A stretch of DNA of 35,626 nt from an uncultured Gammaproteobacteria bacterium (GTDB taxonomy: Bacteria > Patescibacteriota > Microgenomatia > UBA12405). The notes under the pieces were generated by a model. That model was not told where the DNA came from. It was given only the letters and a program-made list of their open reading frames with translations, and did not search any database. Shown here in pieces: positions 7,718 to 35,122 of this stretch. Location: positions 1 through 35,626 of the forward strand of contig CAYSME010000003.1 in NCBI GenBank assembly GCA_964432085.1, read 5' to 3'. The position numbers were made by a program, and so were the translations under genes. Within the stretch, counting starts at the first letter, position 1, and every line of letters begins with the position of its first letter.

Positions 7718-8752
7718 ATGGTCAAAAATAAAAAATCAATCAAAAAAGAAATCCCAAAAGCTATAAAGGATGTCAATAAAATTTATATAAAAATTCCTCT
7801 AATTGGAGTCATAGTTTTTTTGTTGCTATTGGCTGCTACCTCTTTCATTTCTTGCTTTATTTTAATAAAAGTTAAAAGTGGCGAAAATACATCCACTGAT
7901 GCTAAATTAACCTCTGGAAATGTTTTTGATGCTGAAAATACTGATAAACCAGAATTGGATTTCTATGTTATGAGTTTTTGTCCATATGGCAACCAAATGG
8001 AAACCACTCTTAGACCTGTCTTTGATCTTCTTGGCGACAAAGTCAATCTCAAACCTCGTTACATTTTCGAAAAAATCAGTGGAGATTTAGCCACTTATTG
8101 TAAAAATAGTAACCCTGATGTTGCCAACTGTCCTACTTACGTCAAAAACAGCAATGGTCAGCTTAAAGATGTGACTGATTGTAAAAATCAAATCGCCGCC
8201 ATGATTAAAAATTGTAATGACGAAAGCAAATACCTTAAAATAGGAAATAATTTATACACTTCCCTTCATGGACGAGTTGAAGCCAATCAGGATGTTAGAG
8301 AAATCTGTGCTTACAACTTAGCCACTGACAAAAAATTATGGTGGGATTTTGTAAAAAATGTTAATGATAATTGTACTGCTCAAAATGCCGACACTTGCTG
8401 GGAAGAACAAGCCACCAAAGCCGGTCTTGATACCAACAAGATTACTGAATGTTTCAATAAAGATGCTGCTTCTTTAATCGAGGCTGAAATTGCTGATACC
8501 ACTAAAAATAGTGTCAGTGGATCTCCAACTTTAATGATTGATGGAAAAATCTTTCCTCCAGAAGTTGCCAGTAATTCCACTGATCAAAACATTAAGATTG
8601 GTAAAGAAGTTTTCAGCTTAAACGCCATTCGTACTCCAAATGTAATTAAAGCCGCCCTCTGTACTGGCTTTAATAAAGCTCCAAAAGAATGTAAAACCAC
8701 CATTGAAAACAATGCTGCAGAAAATAATGCAGCTGCCACCGGCGGTTGTTAA
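7718..8752 (+). CDS. Membrane-anchored thioredoxin-fold / DsbA-like protein with a Cys-rich insert
   Basis: N-terminal TM. FYVMSFCPYGNQ sits at the position of the CxxC motif (here CPYG). C-terminal GSPTLMIDGK is typical of the DsbA/glutaredoxin fold. Many additional Cys residues. Confidence 0.55.
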   Translation: MVKNKKSIKKEIPKAIKDVNKIYIKIPLIGVIVFLLLLAATSFISCFILIKVKSGENTSTDAKLTSGNVFDAENTDKPELDFYVMSFCPYGNQMETTLRPVFDLLGDKVNLKPRYIFEKISGDLATYCKNSNPDVANCPTYVKNSNGQLKDVTDCKNQIAAMIKNCNDESKYLKIGNNLYTSLHGRVEANQDVREICAYNLATDKKLWWDFVKNVNDNCTAQNADTCWEEQATKAGLDTNKITECFNKDAASLIEAEIADTTKNSVSGSPTLMIDGKIFPPEVASNSTDQNIKIGKEVFSLNAIRTPNVIKAALCTGFNKAPKECKTTIENNAAENNAAATGGC

Positions 8753-8770
8753 AAAATATTTAAAATATCT

Positions 8771-8800
8771 ATAGAGACGCATTATATAATGCGTCTCTAT
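8771..8800. terminator. 30-nt perfect palindrome ATAGAGACGC-ATTATATAAT-GCGTCTCTAT followed by TTGTTTTT. It is a REP-like hairpin acting as the terminator of the DsbA-like gene.
   Basis: Palindrome read directly. It shares the TAGAGACGC stem with the hairpins at 22071 and 29613. Confidence 0.6.
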
Positions 8801-8886
8801 TTGTTTTTATTGCTAAAATAAATTAAATAAAGACTTTTCTCCTTGTTAAGGAGAAATTCCGGTTTATCCGGAAAGAGGATTCATTT

Positions 8887-14185: not shown

Positions 14186-14200
14186 AATAAATTCGTTTTA

Positions 14201-14232
14201 ATATAAGGGCGAGGCATGCCTCGCCCTTATAT
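14201..14232. terminator. 32-nt perfect palindrome ATATAAGGGCGAGGCA/TGCCTCGCCCTTATAT followed by a T-run. It is a REP-like hairpin acting as the gyrA terminator.
   Basis: Read directly. It starts 16 nt after the gyrA stop. Confidence 0.6.
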
Positions 14233-14437
14233 TTTTCCATTACTATAGGGTGTACATATTGGGTAAGCATAAATTAGCAAAGCAATAATTTGAGTGCTAA
14301 CCTACTACATATTTTTAGTTTTACCGTAAATTAGGGACAAATTCACTAACACTAAAAAATAAATTTAGCAAATCAGTGCAGGGGAGTCATTTTAGGTAAT
14401 TTATCGAAAATATAGGGTATAACTTATTTTTTTATCT

Positions 14438-14462
14438 GTAGGGGCGAGGCATGCCTCGCCCC
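14438..14462 (+). repeat. REP-like hairpin GTAG-GGGCGAGGCATGCCTCGCCCC
   Basis: Its 20-nt core (GGGCGAGGCATGCCTCGCCC) is identical to the core of the hairpin at 14201..14232, here extended to a 22-nt palindrome (14441..14462) and preceded by GTAG. Confidence 0.6.
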
Positions 14463-21796: not shown

Positions 21797-22390
21797 CTAT
21801 TTATAAAACTTATCTTTTCCCCAATTTATAACATTGTTTTGAATATAATTTTTGATTATTAATAATTGTTCTTTATCTTTTATGATTTCATCATGAAAAC
21901 GGGGTTGCCAAGCGAAAAATAAATTATTTTGATTACAAATACGTTTTATTGATGATTTAAATTGATTTATTAATTTGGGAATTTCTTGTTTGGATTTAAT
22001 GTTTATCGTTTTAAAAAAATCTGGATGGTTTTTGTGTAAATGTATAACAACTGATTTTATTTTATTTTCATGTAGAGACGCCCCGCTGGGCGTCTCTACA
22101 GGGGTGCCAAATAATTGAATTAATAAATGTATATGGTTTGGCATTATTACGTATTTATGTAATTTAATATTTTTTCGTATTTCAAATGTTTTTAATAATT
22201 CAGATTTAGTTATTATTCCCATTTTTGATAATTCCATTTTATTATTAATAATTTTTCCAAAGAAATTATTATGGTTATAAGTACAGATGGTAATAAAGTA
22301 ATACCCGGGAGTGGAATAATTCCAATTGGTTAAACGAGGTGAATTGGCGCGATATTTATCAGAAAATTTATTATTAAAAACGTCATCCAC
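21797..22390 (-). CDS. IS200/IS605-superfamily Y1 (HUH) transposase-like protein, RAYT type
   Basis: N-terminal YYFITICTYN, HUH motif MPNHIHLLIQ, C-terminal catalytic-Tyr helix IKNYIQNNVINW. GTG start. Confidence 0.75.
   Translation of the reverse strand: MDDVFNNKFSDKYRANSPRLTNWNYSTPGYYFITICTYNHNNFFGKIINNKMELSKMGIITKSELLKTFEIRKNIKLHKYVIMPNHIHLLIQLFGTPVETPSGASLHENKIKSVVIHLHKNHPDFFKTINIKSKQEIPKLINQFKSSIKRICNQNNLFFAWQPRFHDEIIKDKEQLLIIKNYIQNNVINWGKDKFYK
22071..22100. repeat. REP-like hairpin TGTAGAGACGCCC-cgct-GGGCGTCTCTACA embedded in frame in the RAYT-like ORF
   Basis: 13-bp stem. Its 28-nt core matches the extragenic palindrome at 29613..29640 at 27 of 28 positions. It encodes VETPSGASL. Confidence 0.7.
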
Positions 22391-22420: not shown

Positions 22421-23731
22421 TTATTGTTTCTTTTCCACATCAAAAAAGCTAACTTGTTTTCCATTGAAATATAAATTAAAACTGCCTGTTGGACCATTTC
22501 TATGTTTCTCCACACTACACGTCACCATTTCTCTAACCTCTTCGTCTTCTCTATATAAAAAGAACACCACATCAGCATCCTGTTCAATACTTCCCGATTC
22601 TCTTAAATCAGACAATCTTGGCCGACCTCCCCTCGCCTCCATAGCCCTGGATAATTGAGCCAATGCTAAAATCGGTACTTTTAATTCTCTGGCTAAATTT
22701 TTTAACCCTTGAGAAATTTCCGACACTTCTTGTACTCGATTATCTCGAGTACTCCCATGCATTAACTGCAAATAATCAACCACAATAAATTTGATTCCCT
22801 TGTCCACCTGAAGTCTTCTGGCTTTAGTTCTTAATTCTGTTACTGTTAATCCTGGAGTATCATCAATATAAAGTGGGGCTTCTGCTAAAACACCCATTGC
22901 TTCAGATAAACTGTCAAAATCATTAACCGACAACTGCCCTGTTTTTAATTTCCATGCATCAATTAATCCCTGTCTTACCAATAAACGATCAACTAACTCT
23001 TCTTTACTCATTTCCAATGAAAAATAACAAACTGGCAATTTCTTTTCTACAGCCACATATCTGGCAATATTCAATCCAAAAGCCGTTTTACCTATACCTG
23101 GTCTTGCTGCCAAAATTAATAAATTACTATCCTGCATTCCAGCCAAAACATTATCCAATCCATTAAAACCACTTGGAACTCCTCTTAATCCTGTTCCCAT
23201 TTTTTGCAGTTCATCTAATCTATCAAAGCTCGCCGTTAACACTTCTTTCAACGAAGTAGGCACTGTTTTTAAATGTTTCTGCGATAAAGAAAAAATTTCT
23301 TGTTCGGCTATATCCAATAATTGATCTGCCGGTAAAGTCGGATCAAAAGCCTTTTCTGTAATTCTTCCAGAAGCCGAGATTAATTCTCTTTTGGCTGATA
23401 ACGATTTAATAATATGTCCATAACTTTCCACGTTTGCTGCCGTCGGCACTTCACTTGCTAATCTGGTCAAAAAACCTTTACCTCCAATTTTTTTTAATAC
23501 ATTCAATTCCTTTAATTTCTCTGCCACGGTCACAATATCAATCGGCATTCTTTCTTCATAAAGCTTCATCATTGCCTCATAAATCTTGCCATAATTTGAA
23601 TTATAAAAATGTTCCGGTCTCAAAAATTCTGACACACTTAAAACCGCATCATTATCAATCAAAACTGATCCCAACACGCAAATTTCCGCTTCTTCCGAAC
23701 TGGGCGGTAATCGAATTGCATCTGTTGCCAT
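22421..23731 (-). CDS. dnaB: Replicative DNA helicase DnaB
   Basis: PPSSEEAEICVLGSVL N-terminal domain, Walker A ARPGIGKTAF, VVDYLQLM, ALAQLSR, RESGSIEQDADVV. Confidence 0.95.
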   Translation of the reverse strand: MATDAIRLPPSSEEAEICVLGSVLIDNDAVLSVSEFLRPEHFYNSNYGKIYEAMMKLYEERMPIDIVTVAEKLKELNVLKKIGGKGFLTRLASEVPTAANVESYGHIIKSLSAKRELISASGRITEKAFDPTLPADQLLDIAEQEIFSLSQKHLKTVPTSLKEVLTASFDRLDELQKMGTGLRGVPSGFNGLDNVLAGMQDSNLLILAARPGIGKTAFGLNIARYVAVEKKLPVCYFSLEMSKEELVDRLLVRQGLIDAWKLKTGQLSVNDFDSLSEAMGVLAEAPLYIDDTPGLTVTELRTKARRLQVDKGIKFIVVDYLQLMHGSTRDNRVQEVSEISQGLKNLARELKVPILALAQLSRAMEARGGRPRLSDLRESGSIEQDADVVFFLYREDEEVREMVTCSVEKHRNGPTGSFNLYFNGKQVSFFDVEKKQ

Positions 23732-29022: not shown

Positions 29023-29616
29023 ATGATAAAAACTATTATTTTTGATGTTGGTGGAGTTTATTTAAAAGGCAGTTTTATCGATTTTGTTAATAAATCAAGA
29101 AAAATTCTAGGCGTAGATGAAAAATTTTATGCTGATAAAGAAGTAACTTTTGATAAAAAATTTAATGAAGGGAAAGTTTCTGCCAAAAAATGTTTTCAAA
29201 AATATTTTTCTGTACCAATTTCTGATTCTCAAATGAAACAAATAATAAAAATTTGGACCTCCACTTGGAAACCAACAAACTCTATGACTAATCTGGTTAC
29301 CAAACTAAGCCAAAATTACCAACTAGCCATTCTTTCTAATTCAGACCCTTTAAATTCACCAAATTATTATAAAAAAGGTTGGTACCAATATTTTGATCCA
29401 ATTGTTTTATCACACGAGGTTGGAATTTTAAAACCAAATAAAAAAATTTATCAAATACTTTTAAGTAAATTAAAGTCAAAACCATCAGAATGTGTTTATA
29501 TAGATGATCAAATAGATTGCCTTAAACCAGCTCAAGAAATGGGTATAAATACTATTTTATTTAAATCCCCCATCCAATTGAAAAAAGATTTAAAAAATCT
29601 TGGAATTTCCCAGTAG
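29023..29616 (+). CDS. HAD-superfamily hydrolase (subfamily IA-like)
   Basis: IIFDVGGV (motif I), ILSNS (motif II), YIDDQ (motif IV). Confidence 0.75.
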   Translation: MIKTIIFDVGGVYLKGSFIDFVNKSRKILGVDEKFYADKEVTFDKKFNEGKVSAKKCFQKYFSVPISDSQMKQIIKIWTSTWKPTNSMTNLVTKLSQNYQLAILSNSDPLNSPNYYKKGWYQYFDPIVLSHEVGILKPNKKIYQILLSKLKSKPSECVYIDDQIDCLKPAQEMGINTILFKSPIQLKKDLKNLGISQ

Positions 29617-29647
29617 AGACGCCCCGCGGGGCGTCTCTACTTTTTTT
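29613..29647. terminator. 28-nt perfect palindrome GTAGAGACGCCCCG/CGGGGCGTCTCTAC plus a T7 run. It is a REP-like hairpin acting as the HAD gene terminator.
   Basis: Read directly. The TAG stop of the HAD gene is the TAG of the GTAG head. Confidence 0.7.
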
Positions 29648-29657
29648 ACAGTTTTTC

Positions 29658-29944: not shown

Positions 29945-29972
29945 GTAAGGGCGGACCGATGTGTCCGCCCTT
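29945..29972 (+). repeat. REP-like hairpin GTAAGGGCGGAC-cgatgt-GTCCGCCCTT after rpmE
   Basis: 10-bp stem starting 17 nt after the rpmE stop, with the same GTA(A/G)GGGCG head as the hairpins at 14438 and 33897. Confidence 0.55.
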
Positions 29973-29989
29973 TAATATATAATCAAACT

Positions 29990-30718
29990 ATGCCAAACAT
30001 TAATCAAAATATCGCCATCATGGAATTTCATCCAGGTCCCGGAGGTCAAGAGGCCACCATTTGGGCCAATGACTTAATGAACATGTATACCCGCTATGCC
30101 AACAAAGTTGGTTGGAAGGTTATTCAACTTGACGAAAATATTATTCAAATTTCTGGTTTTGACGCCTACAACCAATTAAAATACGAAGCCGGCACCCACC
30201 GTGTTCAACGAATTCCAGTCACTGAAAAACGAGGTCGTATTCAAACTTCAACTGCTTCCATTGTTATTATGCCTCAAATCGAATCCAAAGAAATTAATTT
30301 TAGTATGGATGATGTGGTTATTACCGCCAGCAGAGCCGGTGGTAATGGTGGTCAAAACGTTAATAAAGTTTCCACTGCTGTTCATCTAGTCCATAAACCA
30401 ACTGGTTTAATGTTTGACGTCCGAACCGAACGTTATCAACAGCAAAATCGAGAAATCGCCCTCAAACTTCTTCAAAACAAGCTCTATCAAATGGAAGAAG
30501 AAAAAAAACAGGCCGAAATCTCAGCCGGTCGTGCTGGTATTAGTCAATCAGGACGAGCCGATAAAATCCGAACATATAATTACCCCAGAAATCAAGTAAA
30601 AGACCACAGGATAGAAAAATCTTTTAATAACTTAGATTCGATTATGCAAGGCAATTTAGATGATTTATTACTAGAACTCACCACCCTCGACCAACCGATT
30701 GAAGAAAAGAAAGACTAA
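29990..30718 (+). CDS. prfA: Peptide chain release factor 1, lacking N-terminal domain 1 (242 aa)
   Basis: PVT codon-recognition tripeptide ([14 protein letters not shown]), GGQ motif ([13 protein letters not shown]), [15 protein letters not shown]. The alignment starts at about residue 105 of E. coli RF1. Confidence 0.85.
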
Positions 30719-33732: not shown

Positions 33733-34230
33733 TTAAATATTCATCGGGTTCTCTGTAATATATTTTTTGATCATTAAATATTCTTTTTCATTCCTAATGA
33801 TTCGTTCATAATAATTTCGTTGCCATAATTTAAAACCAATTTCCTTTGATGTATTCATTTTCAAATATCCAATAATATTGGATAATAATGATCTATGTAG
33901 GGGCGATTCATGAATCGTCCCATTATTTAAATTAAAATTAATTTTATTAATATTCATTTTGGGCGAATCATGATTCGCCCCTACAATTTTAATGATCATG
34001 TGTAAATGATCTGGCATTATTTGGTAATCATCAATTCTGATTTTAAAACGATTTATTAAATTTAATAACCAAATTTTACATATCAAACCATTTTTGTTTA
34101 AAATCATCTGACTATTTTCAATTTCCCCAAAAACATTTTTACGATTTTGAACACACATTGTCACAAAATAATAACCGTTACCTGAATAATCATAATCGTT
34201 TAAACGAATCGATCTTCTGTGATATTTCAC
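33733..34230 (-). CDS. IS200/IS605-superfamily Y1 (HUH) transposase-like protein, RAYT type
   Basis: YYFVTMCVQNR, HUH motif MPDHLHMIIKI, C-terminal IKKYITENPMN catalytic-Tyr helix. GTG start. Confidence 0.75.
   Translation of the reverse strand: MKYHRRSIRLNDYDYSGNGYYFVTMCVQNRKNVFGEIENSQMILNKNGLICKIWLLNLINRFKIRIDDYQIMPDHLHMIIKIVGANHDSPKMNINKINFNLNNGTIHESPLHRSLLSNIIGYLKMNTSKEIGFKLWQRNYYERIIRNEKEYLMIKKYITENPMNI
33897..33984. repeat. Inverted pair of REP-like hairpins (REPIN-like doublet) embedded in frame in the second RAYT-like ORF
   Basis: GTAGGGGCGATTCATGAATCGTCCC (33897..33921) and GGGCGAATCATGATTCGCCCCTAC (33961..33984), with GTAG heads facing outward. They encode VGANHDSP ... GTIHESPLH. 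Confidence 0.7.
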
Positions 34231-34553: not shown

Positions 34554-35081
34554 TTAAAAAGGCATTTCTTCAGCCTTCTTTTCTTCAGTAACTTCTTCAG
34601 TGGTAGTTTTTTCTTCCGTAACTGGAATTTCACCCAAATCATCCGGAATCACAATATCTTCCATTGGAGCATCTTGAGTTTCAAGTGGTAAATCTGCCTC
34701 ACCGCCTAAATCACCAGTTACATTATGTTGATCATTACTAACACCTTTATTATCAAGAATCACCATATCATCAATGATAATTTCTGCAATTTGTTTTTTA
34801 TTATTTTCTTGATCGACAAAATCTCTGTATTGAATTCGACCGTCGACATAAACTCTTCGACCTTTTGATAAAAGTTGTGAACAAAGTTCAGCTAATTTAT
34901 TCCAAGCCACAATTCGGTGAAATTGAGCATCTTCTTTTCTCTCACCTTGTTTGGTTACCCAAACTCTATTAGTAGCTAAACCGAAAGAAGCTACTGCCAT
35001 ACCGGCTGGAGTATATCTTAACTCTGGGTCACGAGTTAAATTACCTATTAACATTACCCTATTGAGACATCTACTTGGCAT
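34554..35081 (-). CDS. ssb: Single-stranded DNA-binding protein
   Basis: LNRVMLIGNLTRDPELRYTPAGMAVASFGLATN OB fold and an acidic tail ending EEMPF. The start is placed at ATG 35081. The ORF track gives GTG at 35099. Confidence 0.9.
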   Translation of the reverse strand: MPSRCLNRVMLIGNLTRDPELRYTPAGMAVASFGLATNRVWVTKQGERKEDAQFHRIVAWNKLAELCSQLLSKGRRVYVDGRIQYRDFVDQENNKKQIAEIIIDDMVILDNKGVSNDQHNVTGDLGGEADLPLETQDAPMEDIVIPDDLGEIPVTEEKTTTEEVTEEKKAEEMPF

Positions 35082-35122
35082 AGTTTTATTTACCCCCACA
35101 ACTGCGGGGTCTCCTCATTTCT

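Follow-up and report, generated by a model that had tools for sequence, protein, structure and literature searches.

The RAYT gene at positions 21797 to 22390 of the window (the whole stretch of DNA analysed, 35,626 nucleotides) carries a perfect REP palindrome within its reading frame, and we consider it probable that this is a cognate REP lodged in a permissive loop of the enzyme gene and maintained by copying at the DNA level, not by selection on the protein. The in-gene REP of this gene, here called RAYT-1, is a CPR (Shapirobacteria-like) case of a kind published in 2018.

RAYT-1 and the hairpin in its reading frame

The gene and the elements within it are as follows.

21797..22390, minus strand: RAYT-1, an intact gene for a Y1 (HUH/Tyr) enzyme of the TnpA_REP subclass 2.4 type, 197 aa (Pfam, alignment, AF2)
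22127..22135, minus strand: codons of the HUH motif H86-I87-H88 (HIHLLI) at the end of strand beta3 (alignment; AF2 strand 86-93)
22071-22100, no strand assigned: in-gene REP-1 hairpin TGTAGAGACGCCC-cgct-GGGCGTCTCTACA (perfect 13-bp stem, 4-nt loop)
21905..21910, minus strand: W161-Q162 of WQPRFHDEIIK, aligned with W94-R104, the segment of E. coli TnpA_REP that reads GTAG
21833..21847, minus strand: putatively catalytic Tyr helix, Y182-IQN-N186, with the YIxNN[PV] motif (alignment, profile)

The sequence-only reading had described this ORF as a Y1 transposase of the RAYT kind with HUH and Tyr motifs, and the searches bore this out. In Pfam, the Y1_Tnp domain, which characterises RAYTs in general (Nunvar 2010; Bertels & Rainey 2011), scored 35.4 bits (1.3e-8; cutoff, 23). 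H86, H88, W161, Q162, Y182, and N186 were invariant in an alignment of 44 homologues; within the HuH context P84-N85-H86-I87-H88, P84 was also invariant and N85 was present in at least 90% of them. The roles of the W94-R104 residues in the E. coli enzyme are taken from PMC6006769. The sole PDB match by sequence profile was 4ER8, to whose DYIYINPV the Tyr segment of RAYT-1 aligned, and the AF2 model (pLDDT 81) likewise had 4ER8_A as its best PDB fold match in Foldseek. The best NCBIfam family was REP_Tyr_transpos (E = 3.5e-12), at 46.4 bits, below its cutoff of 80. Judged by motifs, profiles, and predicted fold, the ORF is shown to be an intact RAYT/TnpA_REP of the subclass 2.4 type. It is located in housekeeping synteny, 30 nt from dnaB on one side and 31 nt from a tRNA-Leu gene on the other. 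An IS200/IS605 insertion sequence was rejected as an identity: the NCBIfam transpos_IS200 score was 13 bits (cutoff, 55), RAYT-1 has NHIH and YIQNNV in place of DH[VI]H and Y[IV]ENQ, and the gene has neither flanking LE/RE hairpins nor identical copies, the two RAYT genes of the window being 33% identical (BLASTP, 8e-26).

The 13-bp-stem hairpin at 22071..22100 is, as had been read from the letters, perfect in its stem and translated in frame as VETPSGASL (residues 98-106, between H88 and Y182). Its core at 22072-22099, GTAGAGACGCCC-N4-GGGCGTCTCTAC, is a 28-nt "double-foot" REP forming a GTAG...CTAC palindrome. Folding gave -15.9 kcal/mol for the element as ssDNA (z = -7.9) and a z of -4.4 within 100 nt of mRNA context. 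The segment is a GC island (67% GC versus 23% for the remaining RAYT-1 gene), and all nine of its codons are rare for this genome (fractions 0.04-0.26, product 7e-10). It is not an intrinsic terminator, because no T tract lies 3' of the hairpin, and the terminator scan does not call it. An Rfam scan of the window returned two tRNAs only, with no known RNA family at the hairpin. As claimed earlier, neither flank of the gene holds a palindrome; the 1 kb on either side of the ORF is free of GC-rich hairpins, and the nearest copy lies at a distance of 7.2 kb.

The sequence-only reading had also placed the hairpin in a permissive loop, and the AF2 model agrees with this: strand 86-93 is directly followed by a predicted coil (residues 94-118) of low confidence, with a pLDDT of 52-59 that falls below 50 at residues 101-103. 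The beta3-alphaC region takes up about 40 positions in the RAYT-1 profile versus about 9 in 4ER8, and the 44-homologue alignment is highly gapped there. The REP-1 peptide is shown to be a by-product, a short surface loop that is predicted to be disordered. On sequence grounds, the 28-nt palindrome is shown to be a copy of what would be the enzyme's own cognate REP, in DNA coding for the variable beta3-alphaC loop.

REP copies, homologues, and a second RAYT gene

Further REP elements and a second RAYT gene lie elsewhere in the window.

29612..29648, plus strand: REP-1 copy followed by TTTTTTT, with 15-nt arms at 29612-29641; 27 of the 28 positions of its core (29613-29640) are the same as in the in-gene core
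8771..8812, plus strand: REP-1 relative with the head ATAG, a different inner stem, and a T-rich tail (palindrome 8771-8800), sharing TAGAGACGC...GCGTCTCTA
33733..34230, minus strand: RAYT-2, a second Y1_Tnp gene, 165 aa, adjoining ssb (Pfam Y1_Tnp, 31 bits; cutoff, 23)
33897..33984, no strand assigned: two in-frame REP-2 copies in inverted orientation, GTAG-GGGCGAATCATGATTCGCCC and its partner, at a distance of 44 nt, directly after the RAYT-2 HUH strand
14438..14462, plus strand: extragenic REP-2-type copy GTAGGGGCGAGGCATGCCTCGCCCC, terminator-like (sequence, terminator scan)
14200..14233, plus strand: REP-2-type relative with the head ATAA, just after gyrA, terminator-like (sequence, terminator scan)
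29945..29972, plus strand: REP-2-type relative GTAAGGGCGGACC...GTCCGCCCTT in the spacer upstream of a release-factor gene (29990..30718) (sequence)

Both distant sites named in the earlier reading, the gene-end hairpin at 29613 and the recurring stem at 8771, were recovered. TAG at 29614-29616, within the former, is the stop codon of a HAD-hydrolase gene (29023..29616), and this copy is the best terminator-like site within 20-31 kb; the relative at 8771 lies 19 nt past ORF 7718..8752. The REP-1 type has the pattern GTAGAGACG-N10-CGTCTCTAC and the REP-2 type GTAGGGGCG.... Three REP-1 copies in 35.6 kb are well above chance: the 12-mer GTAGAGACGCCC occurs 4 times (0.36 expected) and AGAGACG 6 times (1.0 expected), counts reached by no shuffle. 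In metagenomes, the REP-1 28-mer class had at least 121 matches listed, at least 4 of which share a 949-kb contig, and ORFs for AnmK, MutS, IF-2, and Dus contain the same REP in frame. The terminator scan ranked the extragenic copies as its top terminator-like sites. Such dispersed REPs, which lie at gene ends with T tracts in an AT-rich genome, probably act as intrinsic terminators.

Across homologues, the palindrome is read in more than one way. Its third reading frame is a TAG stop, and the other two are open. All 120 of the closest RAYT-1 homologues have arm peptides, namely VET..ASL in 75, CRD..VST in 24, and mixed frames, including VET..VST and VET..VRL, in the rest. The VET..ASL peptides recur in Bacteroidota, Gammaproteobacteria, Ignavibacteria, Chloroflexota, and others, in line with the earlier statement that they occur in other phyla. 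A set of 25 distinct in-gene 28-mers drawn from many phyla shows near-invariance at pairs 1-9 (GTAGAGACG); pairs 10-14 include each of the four Watson-Crick types and hardly any mismatch. The inner stem covaries. The outer stem does not vary among five close relatives, whose flanking codons have diverged. Reading frame and copy number vary among homologues that are 50-60% identical, and close homologues range widely in REP copy number (1-4), in distance from HUH (2 to ~25 aa), and in extra half-arms. Close relatives were taken from contigs encoding homologues; among distant relatives in the contig scan (28-43% identity among the matches listed), about one third to one half have no in-gene hairpin. 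The alignment of homologues that had been suggested as a check indicates conservation at the DNA level, in either open frame and with a covarying inner stem, and on this evidence the palindrome is a feature of the DNA, not of the peptide. Of 33 elements, 27 are palindromic across the central 4 nt as well. This symmetry is not explained by hairpin stability or by simple transposition, which counts against the explanation preferred below.

RAYT-2 had been overlooked in the earlier reading. Its pair of REP-2 copies, which occupies the same loop as the REP-1 of RAYT-1, is translated as VGANHDSP...GTIHESPL, and no REPs flank the gene in the window. An in-gene REP was present in at least 97 of 118 RAYT-2 homologues. 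The REP type tracks the RAYT clade. RAYT-1 homologues carry the GAGACG type only (117/120, versus 0/120 for the GGGGCG type), and RAYT-2 homologues carry the GGGGCG type only (97/118, versus 0/118 for the GAGACG type). At locus L211, both types occur within 20 kb, but REP-2 is the only type in and immediately beside the RAYT-2 gene. The proposal that enzyme and hairpin form a cognate pair is supported by this correspondence between sequence types.

Copying between REPs and alternative explanations

To compare in-gene and extragenic elements, we used loci in which the RAYT ORF could be located; a motif-based ORF finder missed it in 13 of 80 loci, and those 13 were excluded from these statistics. 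In 12 of 15 loci, which are not phylogenetically independent, the in-gene inner stem differed by at most 2 nt from an extragenic copy of the same locus, and in 7 the two were identical; the permuted control had a mean of 1.5 and a maximum of 5. At L082, the in-gene segment and the 3' flank share a stretch of more than 50 identical nt, part of which is non-palindromic spacer. The density of REP elements was 0.72/kb inside RAYT genes versus 0.036/kb in the ±10-kb flanks, and for half of the extragenic copies the RAYT gene is no more than 130 bp away. Nine of nine close relatives have an in-gene REP versus about four of nine with flanking copies; L081, L084, and the window keep the in-gene palindrome without a flanking REP, and L082, L083, and L086 have flanking REPs. 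In the window, the in-gene core differs from the extragenic copy by 1 nt that breaks the central symmetry; therefore, this copy has not been homogenised recently.

We propose that ongoing DNA-level copying among the copies would keep the palindrome perfect and identical to the other REPs of the genome, and that protein selection would not be what maintains it. Likely routes would be the cleavage and joining of single strands by RAYT at the GTAG foot, gene conversion, and template switching, alone or in combination; homologous gene conversion would yield the same concerted pattern as RAYT-mediated copying. That the RAYT gene itself is the hottest site would be due to the accumulation of REP copies near it and to the tolerance of the beta3-alphaC loop for insertions. 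A REP inside a selected frame, with its 28-nt core not a multiple of three, would not be losable by imprecise deletion. Of the three options raised earlier (insertion, cis-regulator, or source copy), the sequence comparisons favour repeated copying into a permissive site.

Other explanations were weighed against this one. That the conserved feature is the peptide VETPxGASL, with the palindrome incidental, has a negligible chance of being correct: VET..ASL does occur in 75/120 homologues, but the others read the same DNA as CRD..VST, VET..VST, or VET..VRL, the codons are the rarest of the synonymous choices, the segment is predicted to be disordered (AF2), and identical DNA is found outside genes. 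Conservation at the peptide level is ruled out by frames, codon usage, and disorder. Very improbable, too, is a single ancient REP insertion, frozen and vertically inherited without exchange, whose palindromy would be due to chance or weak selection. Its constant position, always in the beta3-alphaC loop, the outer 9-bp stem that is identical across phyla, and RNase J-RAYT-ProRS synteny in L082, L083, L086, and L088, which suggests vertical descent, all fit such an insertion. However, the inner stems of close relatives differ, each being a perfect palindrome that matches local extragenic copies, and frame and copy number differ between homologues at 50-60% identity. The long identity between the in-gene segment and the flank at L082 also contradicts it, and a neutral 28-nt palindrome would decay like the surrounding loop codons, which are highly diverged.

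A selected cis-acting role, as opposed to a tolerated passenger, is the more serious rival, though we regard it as unlikely. The in-gene REP might be a master or "reference" copy, protected in the gene, which links enzyme and substrate genetically and can reseed the REP family; or it might be an autoregulatory hairpin that limits RAYT expression, either as an mRNA structure or as an ssDNA site bound by RAYT. Consistent with such a role, the element is kept in 120/120 RAYT-1 and at least 97/118 RAYT-2 homologues, each clade has its own REP type only, the palindrome stays perfect where no flanking REP lies within 10 kb (L081, L084), in-gene copies outlast flanking ones in close relatives, and the hairpin is strongly stable in its mRNA context. 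On the other hand, the variable copy number, HUH distance, and half-arms look like mutational churn, not a tuned regulator; the missing T tract leaves no intrinsic terminator; roughly a third to a half of the distant relatives do without an in-gene hairpin; unrelated genes tolerate the same REP in frame; and reading-frame trapping accounts for persistence without any function. Near-universal presence (120/120), also without a flanking REP, fits passive tolerance only via the "trapped copy" argument, and the same persistence would also be predicted by a selected function. A combined form, in which the in-gene REP is a maintained "reference copy" of the substrate, kept by each RAYT lineage in its own gene, frame-trapped and actively re-symmetrised, that would link enzyme and REP type in their inheritance and might reseed the system or regulate it, is offered tentatively and with more doubt than confidence. 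Maintenance of a cognate REP by DNA-level copying remains the explanation that we prefer.

Relation to known systems and implications

The sequence-only reading had taken the in-gene palindrome for an undescribed feature, and here it was mistaken. Quentin, Siguier, Chandler & Fichant (2018, BMC Genomics 19:475, PMC6006769) reported REPs that lie in frame in the beta3/alphaC loop, between HuH and Y, as the "remarkable and unique feature" of TnpA_REP subclass 2.4, which they equated with RAYT Group 4 of Bertels et al. 2017. Their Table S1 gives GTAGAGACGCACGGCCGTGCGTCTCTAC for Chloroflexus aggregans, with the same outer stem as here (GTAGAGACG). RAYT-1 resembles this subclass in the NH[IFV]H and WQ motifs, in five of six positions of YIxNNP (the last residue is P/V/I in close homologues), in length (197 versus ~194 aa), in the beta3-alphaC insertion of variable length, in the long "double-foot" REP (GT[AG]G...C[TC]AC), and in the in-frame REP inside the tnpA_REP gene between HuH and Y. 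Unlike most members, neither RAYT gene of the window has flanking REPs; since PMC6006769 reports REPs within ±1 kb (±1000 nt) for the "large majority" of subclass 2.4 members, flanking REPs are a typical rather than an obligatory feature. The host here belongs to a lineage not named in PMC6006769, CPR/Patescibacteria (Shapirobacteria-like), and in-gene REPs are near-universal in the present clades, whereas PMC6006769 calls them "predominant". Frame-independence, within-genome concerted evolution, and clade-specific REP types are absent from that paper, which proposes no function. In-gene REPs are not mentioned in Nunvar 2010, Bertels 2017, Bertels & Rainey 2022, or Corneloup 2021. Our literature search found nothing relevant on RAYTs in Patescibacteria, and work after 2018 may have been missed.

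Compared with E. coli TnpA_REP (YafM; 4ER8; REPtron/BIME), RAYT-1 shares the HUH/Tyr fold, the WQPRF...I(R/K) GTAG-reading segment, and a GTAG-headed hairpin as substrate, putative in the case of RAYT-1. The E. coli enzyme, however, is 16% identical to RAYT-1, its beta3-alphaC loop is ~30 aa shorter, and its REPs are single-footed, have a bulge in the stem, and flank the gene without ever lying within it. IS200/IS605 TnpA proteins (IS608, ISDra2) have in common with RAYT-1 the Y1 HUH catalytic domain and ssDNA hairpin recognition, the latter putative in RAYT-1, and they account for fold matches 2-30 of RAYT-1; in contrast, IS608 and ISDra2 are autonomous, multicopy insertion sequences with subterminal LE/RE hairpins and the motifs DH[VI]H and Y[IV]ENQ. 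Di Nocera et al. (2013, BMC Genomics 14:522) described REPs with a GTAG tag in protein-coding genes, among which replication and repair genes are frequent hosts. Those REPs and the Rickettsia palindromic elements resemble the present case as short palindromic repeats in frame that are tolerated in proteins. The difference is that the host gene here is the enzyme presumed to mobilise the repeat and that the same loop is used family-wide. Rickettsia palindromic elements are longer than the REPs described here, and we know of no cognate enzyme for them.

These results confirm a little-known published peculiarity of one RAYT subclass and extend it to CPR bacteria. Whatever its function, the in-gene element allows the REP of a RAYT to be read from the protein, VET..ASL denoting the GAGACG type and VGAIHESPL the GGGGCG type. 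The in-gene hairpin is a built-in label of the enzyme's substrate, and therefore enzyme-REP specificity can be surveyed from protein databases alone; with thousands of uncultured RAYTs, RAYT-REP coevolution becomes testable at scale. For annotation, the finding accounts for the odd low-complexity segments VET..ASL, CRD..VST, and VGAIHESPL in thousands of "transposase" entries. Finally, the identity between in-gene and extragenic copies within genomes provides indirect evidence that REP DNA may still be moved by these "domesticated" transposases or by recombination that they provoke.

The RAYT-1 gene and its in-gene hairpin

Features of the RAYT-1 locus
21797..22390, minus strand: RAYT-1, 197 aa, with a Pfam Y1_Tnp match
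22071-22100: in-gene REP-1 hairpin, TGTAGAGACGCCC-cgct-GGGCGTCTCTACA, with a perfect 13-bp stem
22421-23731: dnaB, adjoining RAYT-1

The RAYT-1 product scored 35.4 bits against Pfam Y1_Tnp (gathering score, 23), and its top NCBIfam family was REP_Tyr_transpos (E = 3.5e-12), with 46 bits, below the equivalog cutoff of 80. Six residues, namely H86 and H88 (HIH), W161, Q162, Y182, and N186, were invariant among 44 aligned homologues. The gene thus has the WQ motif as well as the HUH motif and catalytic-Tyr helix (YIQNNV), in line with the sequence-only reading, which had assigned the gene to the RAYT kind from its HUH motif and C-terminal Tyr helix. That reading was also correct in finding no palindrome in either flank of RAYT-1, which is separated from dnaB by 30 nt and from tRNA-Leu by 31 nt, and in describing a 13-bp-stem hairpin read as VETPSGASL: the stem is perfect and is translated in frame as V98-ETPSGAS-L106. 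The hairpin greatly exceeds shuffled controls in stability, both as single-stranded DNA (−15.9 kcal/mol; z = −7.9) and within 100 nt of mRNA context (z = −4.4). It has no T tract, and a terminator scan of the window did not call it.

In an AlphaFold2 model of RAYT-1 (mean pLDDT 81), the HUH motif lies on strand 86-93 and leads directly into a coil (residues 94-118) whose pLDDT is 52-59 and drops below 50 at residues 101-103. The top structural match was 4ER8, the complex of E. coli TnpA_REP with a REP hairpin, with IS608 and ISDra2 TnpA next; 4ER8 was also the sole PDB match of the RAYT-1 sequence profile. From the HUH strand to the helix that follows, the RAYT-1 profile spans about 40 positions, compared to about 9 residues in 4ER8. 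From the low-pLDDT coil and this longer segment, the in-gene element is predicted to encode a disordered surface loop between beta3 and alphaC, the kind of location for which structure modeling had been proposed as a check.

Conservation as DNA and REP type by clade

All nine codons of the in-gene element are minority codons in this 33% GC genome (0.04 to 0.26 of synonymous usage; product, 7e-10), and the element is 67% GC versus 23% for the remainder of the gene. The sequence-only reading had also called for an alignment of homologues to see whether the palindrome is conserved at the DNA level, and it is: among 120 listed RAYT-1 homologues (45-84% identity; mostly Candidatus Shapirobacteria and other CPR), frames vary and all 120 keep arm-derived peptides after the HUH motif. 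These are VET..ASL in 75, CRD..VST in 24, and mixed in the rest (VET..VST, VET..VRL), all of which come from reading GTAGAGACG...CGTCTCTAC: the 5' arm is used in its two open frames and the 3' arm in every frame, and none of the 120 uses the remaining 5'-arm frame, where a TAG occurs. Across five close relatives, the codons to both sides have diverged around an unchanged outer stem. Furthermore, a comparison of 25 distinct in-gene 28-mers, drawn from many phyla, shows almost no change in base pairs 1-9 (GTAGAGACG), and pairs 10-14 include all four Watson-Crick types with almost no mismatches. The in-gene palindrome is a DNA feature; a peptide feature is ruled out by the varied frames, minority codons, GC contrast, outer-stem invariance, and stem covariation.

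While examining other GC-rich hairpins, we met a second RAYT gene that the sequence-only reading does not mention.

Features of the RAYT-2 clade in the window
33733..34230, minus strand: RAYT-2, second Y1_Tnp gene, 165 aa (31 bits; cutoff, 23)
33897-33921 and 33961-33984: in-gene REP-2 pair of RAYT-2, in frame, inverted, 44 nt apart
14438-14462, 14200-14233, and 29945-29972: extragenic REP-2 relatives (GGGCGAGGCATGCCTCGCCC and a relative)
34554-35099: ssb, adjoining RAYT-2

RAYT-2 is 33% identical to RAYT-1. Its inverted pair of the GTAGGGGCGA... type, GTAG-GGGCGAATCATGATTCGCCC and a partner, directly follows the HUH strand (MPDHLHMIIKI) and is translated as VGANHDSP...GTIHESPL, in a loop corresponding to that of RAYT-1. 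GGGGCG-type (REP-2) peptides, e.g., VGAIHESPL (GTAGGGGCGATTCATGAATCGCCCCTAC), occurred in 97 of 118 RAYT-2 homologues with the HUH motif and GAGACG-type (REP-1) peptides in none; among the 120 listed RAYT-1 homologues, 117 had the GAGACG type and none the GGGGCG type. In a Shapirobacteria MAG (L211), both REP types lie within 20 kb, and the RAYT-2 gene with its immediate flanks contains only REP-2. REP type thus follows the RAYT clade, and these counts are the strongest support for the earlier proposal of a cognate enzyme-hairpin pair, for which they argue.

Both RAYT genes of the window directly adjoin replication genes, dnaB and ssb. RAYT relatives likewise stand in conserved housekeeping synteny, MgsA-RAYT-MGMT (L084/L085) and RNase J-RAYT-ProRS-FtsK (L082/L083/L086/L088), and some adjoin mgsA/rarA-type and ogt-type genes. 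This synteny fits vertical inheritance, and the neighborhood possibly reflects a link to replication-fork single-stranded DNA.

Dispersed copies and concerted evolution

Extragenic REP-1 elements and a nearby gene
29612-29641: extragenic REP-1, 15-nt arms, 28-nt core 27/28 identical to the in-gene core
8771-8800: REP-1 relative with an ATAG head
29990-30718, plus strand: release-factor homologue, 242 aa only

Two further copies had been claimed for the window. The 28-nt palindrome at 29613 is present at a gene end as described; at 8771, where the same stem had been reported, there is a relative, its head being ATAG. Chance does not explain the REP-1 copies, since GTAGAGACGCCC occurs 4 times (0.36 expected) and AGAGACG 6 times (1.0 expected), counts that no shuffle matched. 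When terminator-like sites of the window are ranked, extragenic copies of both REP types come out on top. At 29612-29616, the upstream HAD-hydrolase gene (29023..29616) uses the TAG of the GTAG head as its stop codon, so that the REP overlaps the gene end and gives both a stop and a terminator-like hairpin. The convergent gyrA and Xer-type integrase genes are separated by a gap that contains the hairpins at 14200 and 14438, the best terminator-like sites there. In the release-factor homologue, the PCRF match begins at profile position 99, and the gene seems either to lack the N-terminal region usual in RF1/RF2 or to encode it in another frame.

A metagenome scan for GTAGAGACGCCC-N4-GGGCGTCTCTAC gave at least 121 matches on contigs of 29-73% GC; among those listed, seven lie in RAYT ORFs, two adjoin one, and the rest are elsewhere. 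Contig Ga0172380_10000001, near genome size (949 kb, ~35% GC), carries at least four copies (L117, L124, L131, L168) of the exact 28-mer at window positions 29613-29640. Several share similar flanks (TCGNTTCCAT-REP-AAAATATCCC), which suggests a longer repeated unit. Moreover, GTAGAGACGCCC...GGGCGTCTCTAC REPs are read in frame (VETPxxASL) in unrelated housekeeping ORFs of metagenome contigs, encoding AnmK (L091, two copies), MutS (L107), IF-2 (L139), and Dus (L166); RAYT genes are therefore not alone in tolerating an in-frame REP.

Species-representative genomes contained at least 80 loci of RAYT-1 relatives (28-43% identity), those listed including Chloroflexota, Bacteroidota, Cyanobacteria, Gamma- and Deltaproteobacteria, Ignavibacteria, Cloacimonadota, Thermotogaceae, Leptospira, and several CPR groups. 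The earlier statement that VET..ASL peptides recur in other phyla was sound: many listed relatives show kindred peptides (VETLHATSL, VETQNFASL, VGTTHALSL, RDVACNVST), and arm-type peptides are absent from about a third to half of the relatives in the matches listed. Among these matches, 33 of 77 RAYT genes have at least one TAG[AG]GAC...GTC[CT]CTA element, 27 of 35 such elements are perfect palindromes, element density is 0.72 per kb in RAYT genes versus 0.036 per kb in the ±10-kb flanks, and 130 bp or less separates half of the extragenic copies from a RAYT gene.

Copies within a locus evolve in concert. The in-gene inner stem is within 2 nt of a same-locus extragenic copy in 12 of the 15 loci with both kinds (identical in 7), compared to a mean of 1.5 and a maximum of 5 over 1,000 trials with permuted loci. 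All nine close relatives (L081-L089) have a perfect in-gene palindrome, and their inner stems differ. L086 has the classical REPtron layout, with identical REPs in the gene and both flanks. In L082, the in-gene segment shares more than 50 identical nt with the 3' flank, covering the REP, spacer ATATTCAAA, and one additional 3' arm; in the flank, the identical stretch runs on as a tandem array of the 3' arm.

Repeat array of locus L082
10634-10830 and 10313-10375: full REP, then ~9 tandem units of 21 nt, just downstream of the RAYT gene, and extra half-arm units inside that gene

The array unit is the 3' arm plus spacer (CTACGTCTCTACATATTCAAA), and the L082 RAYT gene itself has one to two extra half-arm units (YVST...YVST...NVST repeats). 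Together, the same-locus matches, the differing stems of L081-L089, and the identities in L086 and L082 indicate that in-gene copies still exchange DNA with extragenic ones. Had the insertion been ancient and frozen, neither same-locus stem matches, varied perfect stems, nor the >50-nt identity in L082 would have arisen.

Origin of the in-gene copy and relation to known systems

Exchange might proceed through RAYT-catalyzed cleavage and joining of single-stranded DNA at the GTAG foot, through gene conversion or template switching, or both. The RAYT gene would be the hottest site because REPs accumulate beside it, its loop is permissive, and only one frame in three is closed; once there, a copy would be trapped in the selected frame, since loss of the 28-nt core would shift it. 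The chief alternative is selection on the in-gene copy itself, which could act as an autoregulator or as a protected reference. That nearly all members of these CPR clades retain it, including those with no REPs in the flanks, lends such a role some weight; however, the copy number and position of the in-gene REP are strongly variable, and we consider selection unlikely.

Of the 49 distinct elements among the matches listed for the window and loci L001-L089, 39 have a length of exactly 28 nt, and the central 4 nt are self-complementary in 27 of the 33 elements whose stems are otherwise perfect, with seven different centers (CATG, TGCA, AATT, CGCG, TTAA, TATA, and ATAT). Because hairpin loop or stability cannot select for central self-complementarity, this pattern suggests symmetric generation, e.g., by template switching or quasi-palindrome correction.

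The sequence-only reading had regarded the in-gene REP as unexplained. It is in fact a hallmark of TnpA_REP subclass 2.4 in the classification of TnpA_Y1 proteins by Quentin, Siguier, Chandler, and Fichant (BMC Genomics 2018; PMC6006769), in which in-frame insertions of variable length and sequence occupy the beta3/alphaC loop, between HuH and Y. Subclass 2.4, equated there with RAYT Group 4 of Bertels et al. 2017, has NH[IFV]H, WQ, and YIxNNP motifs, a mean length of 194 aa, and "long / double foot" REPs; Table S1 of that paper gives GTAGAGACGCACGGCCGTGCGTCTCTAC for Chloroflexus aggregans. RAYT-1 shows all sequence features of the subclass except REPs in the flanks, and the paper does not name CPR, the lineage of the window. 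Still earlier, Di Nocera et al. 2013 described GTAG REPs within genes, frequently ones for replication and repair. The in-gene REP is thus a rediscovery, and the overall reading, a RAYT enzyme with its own REP in a permissive loop, is confirmed as an observation and supported as an interpretation. In the literature covered, we found no report of frame independence, within-genome concerted evolution, clade-specific REP type, or palindromy through the center. The in-gene REP would matter more if it is functional, or if it is used as a built-in label of RAYT specificity.
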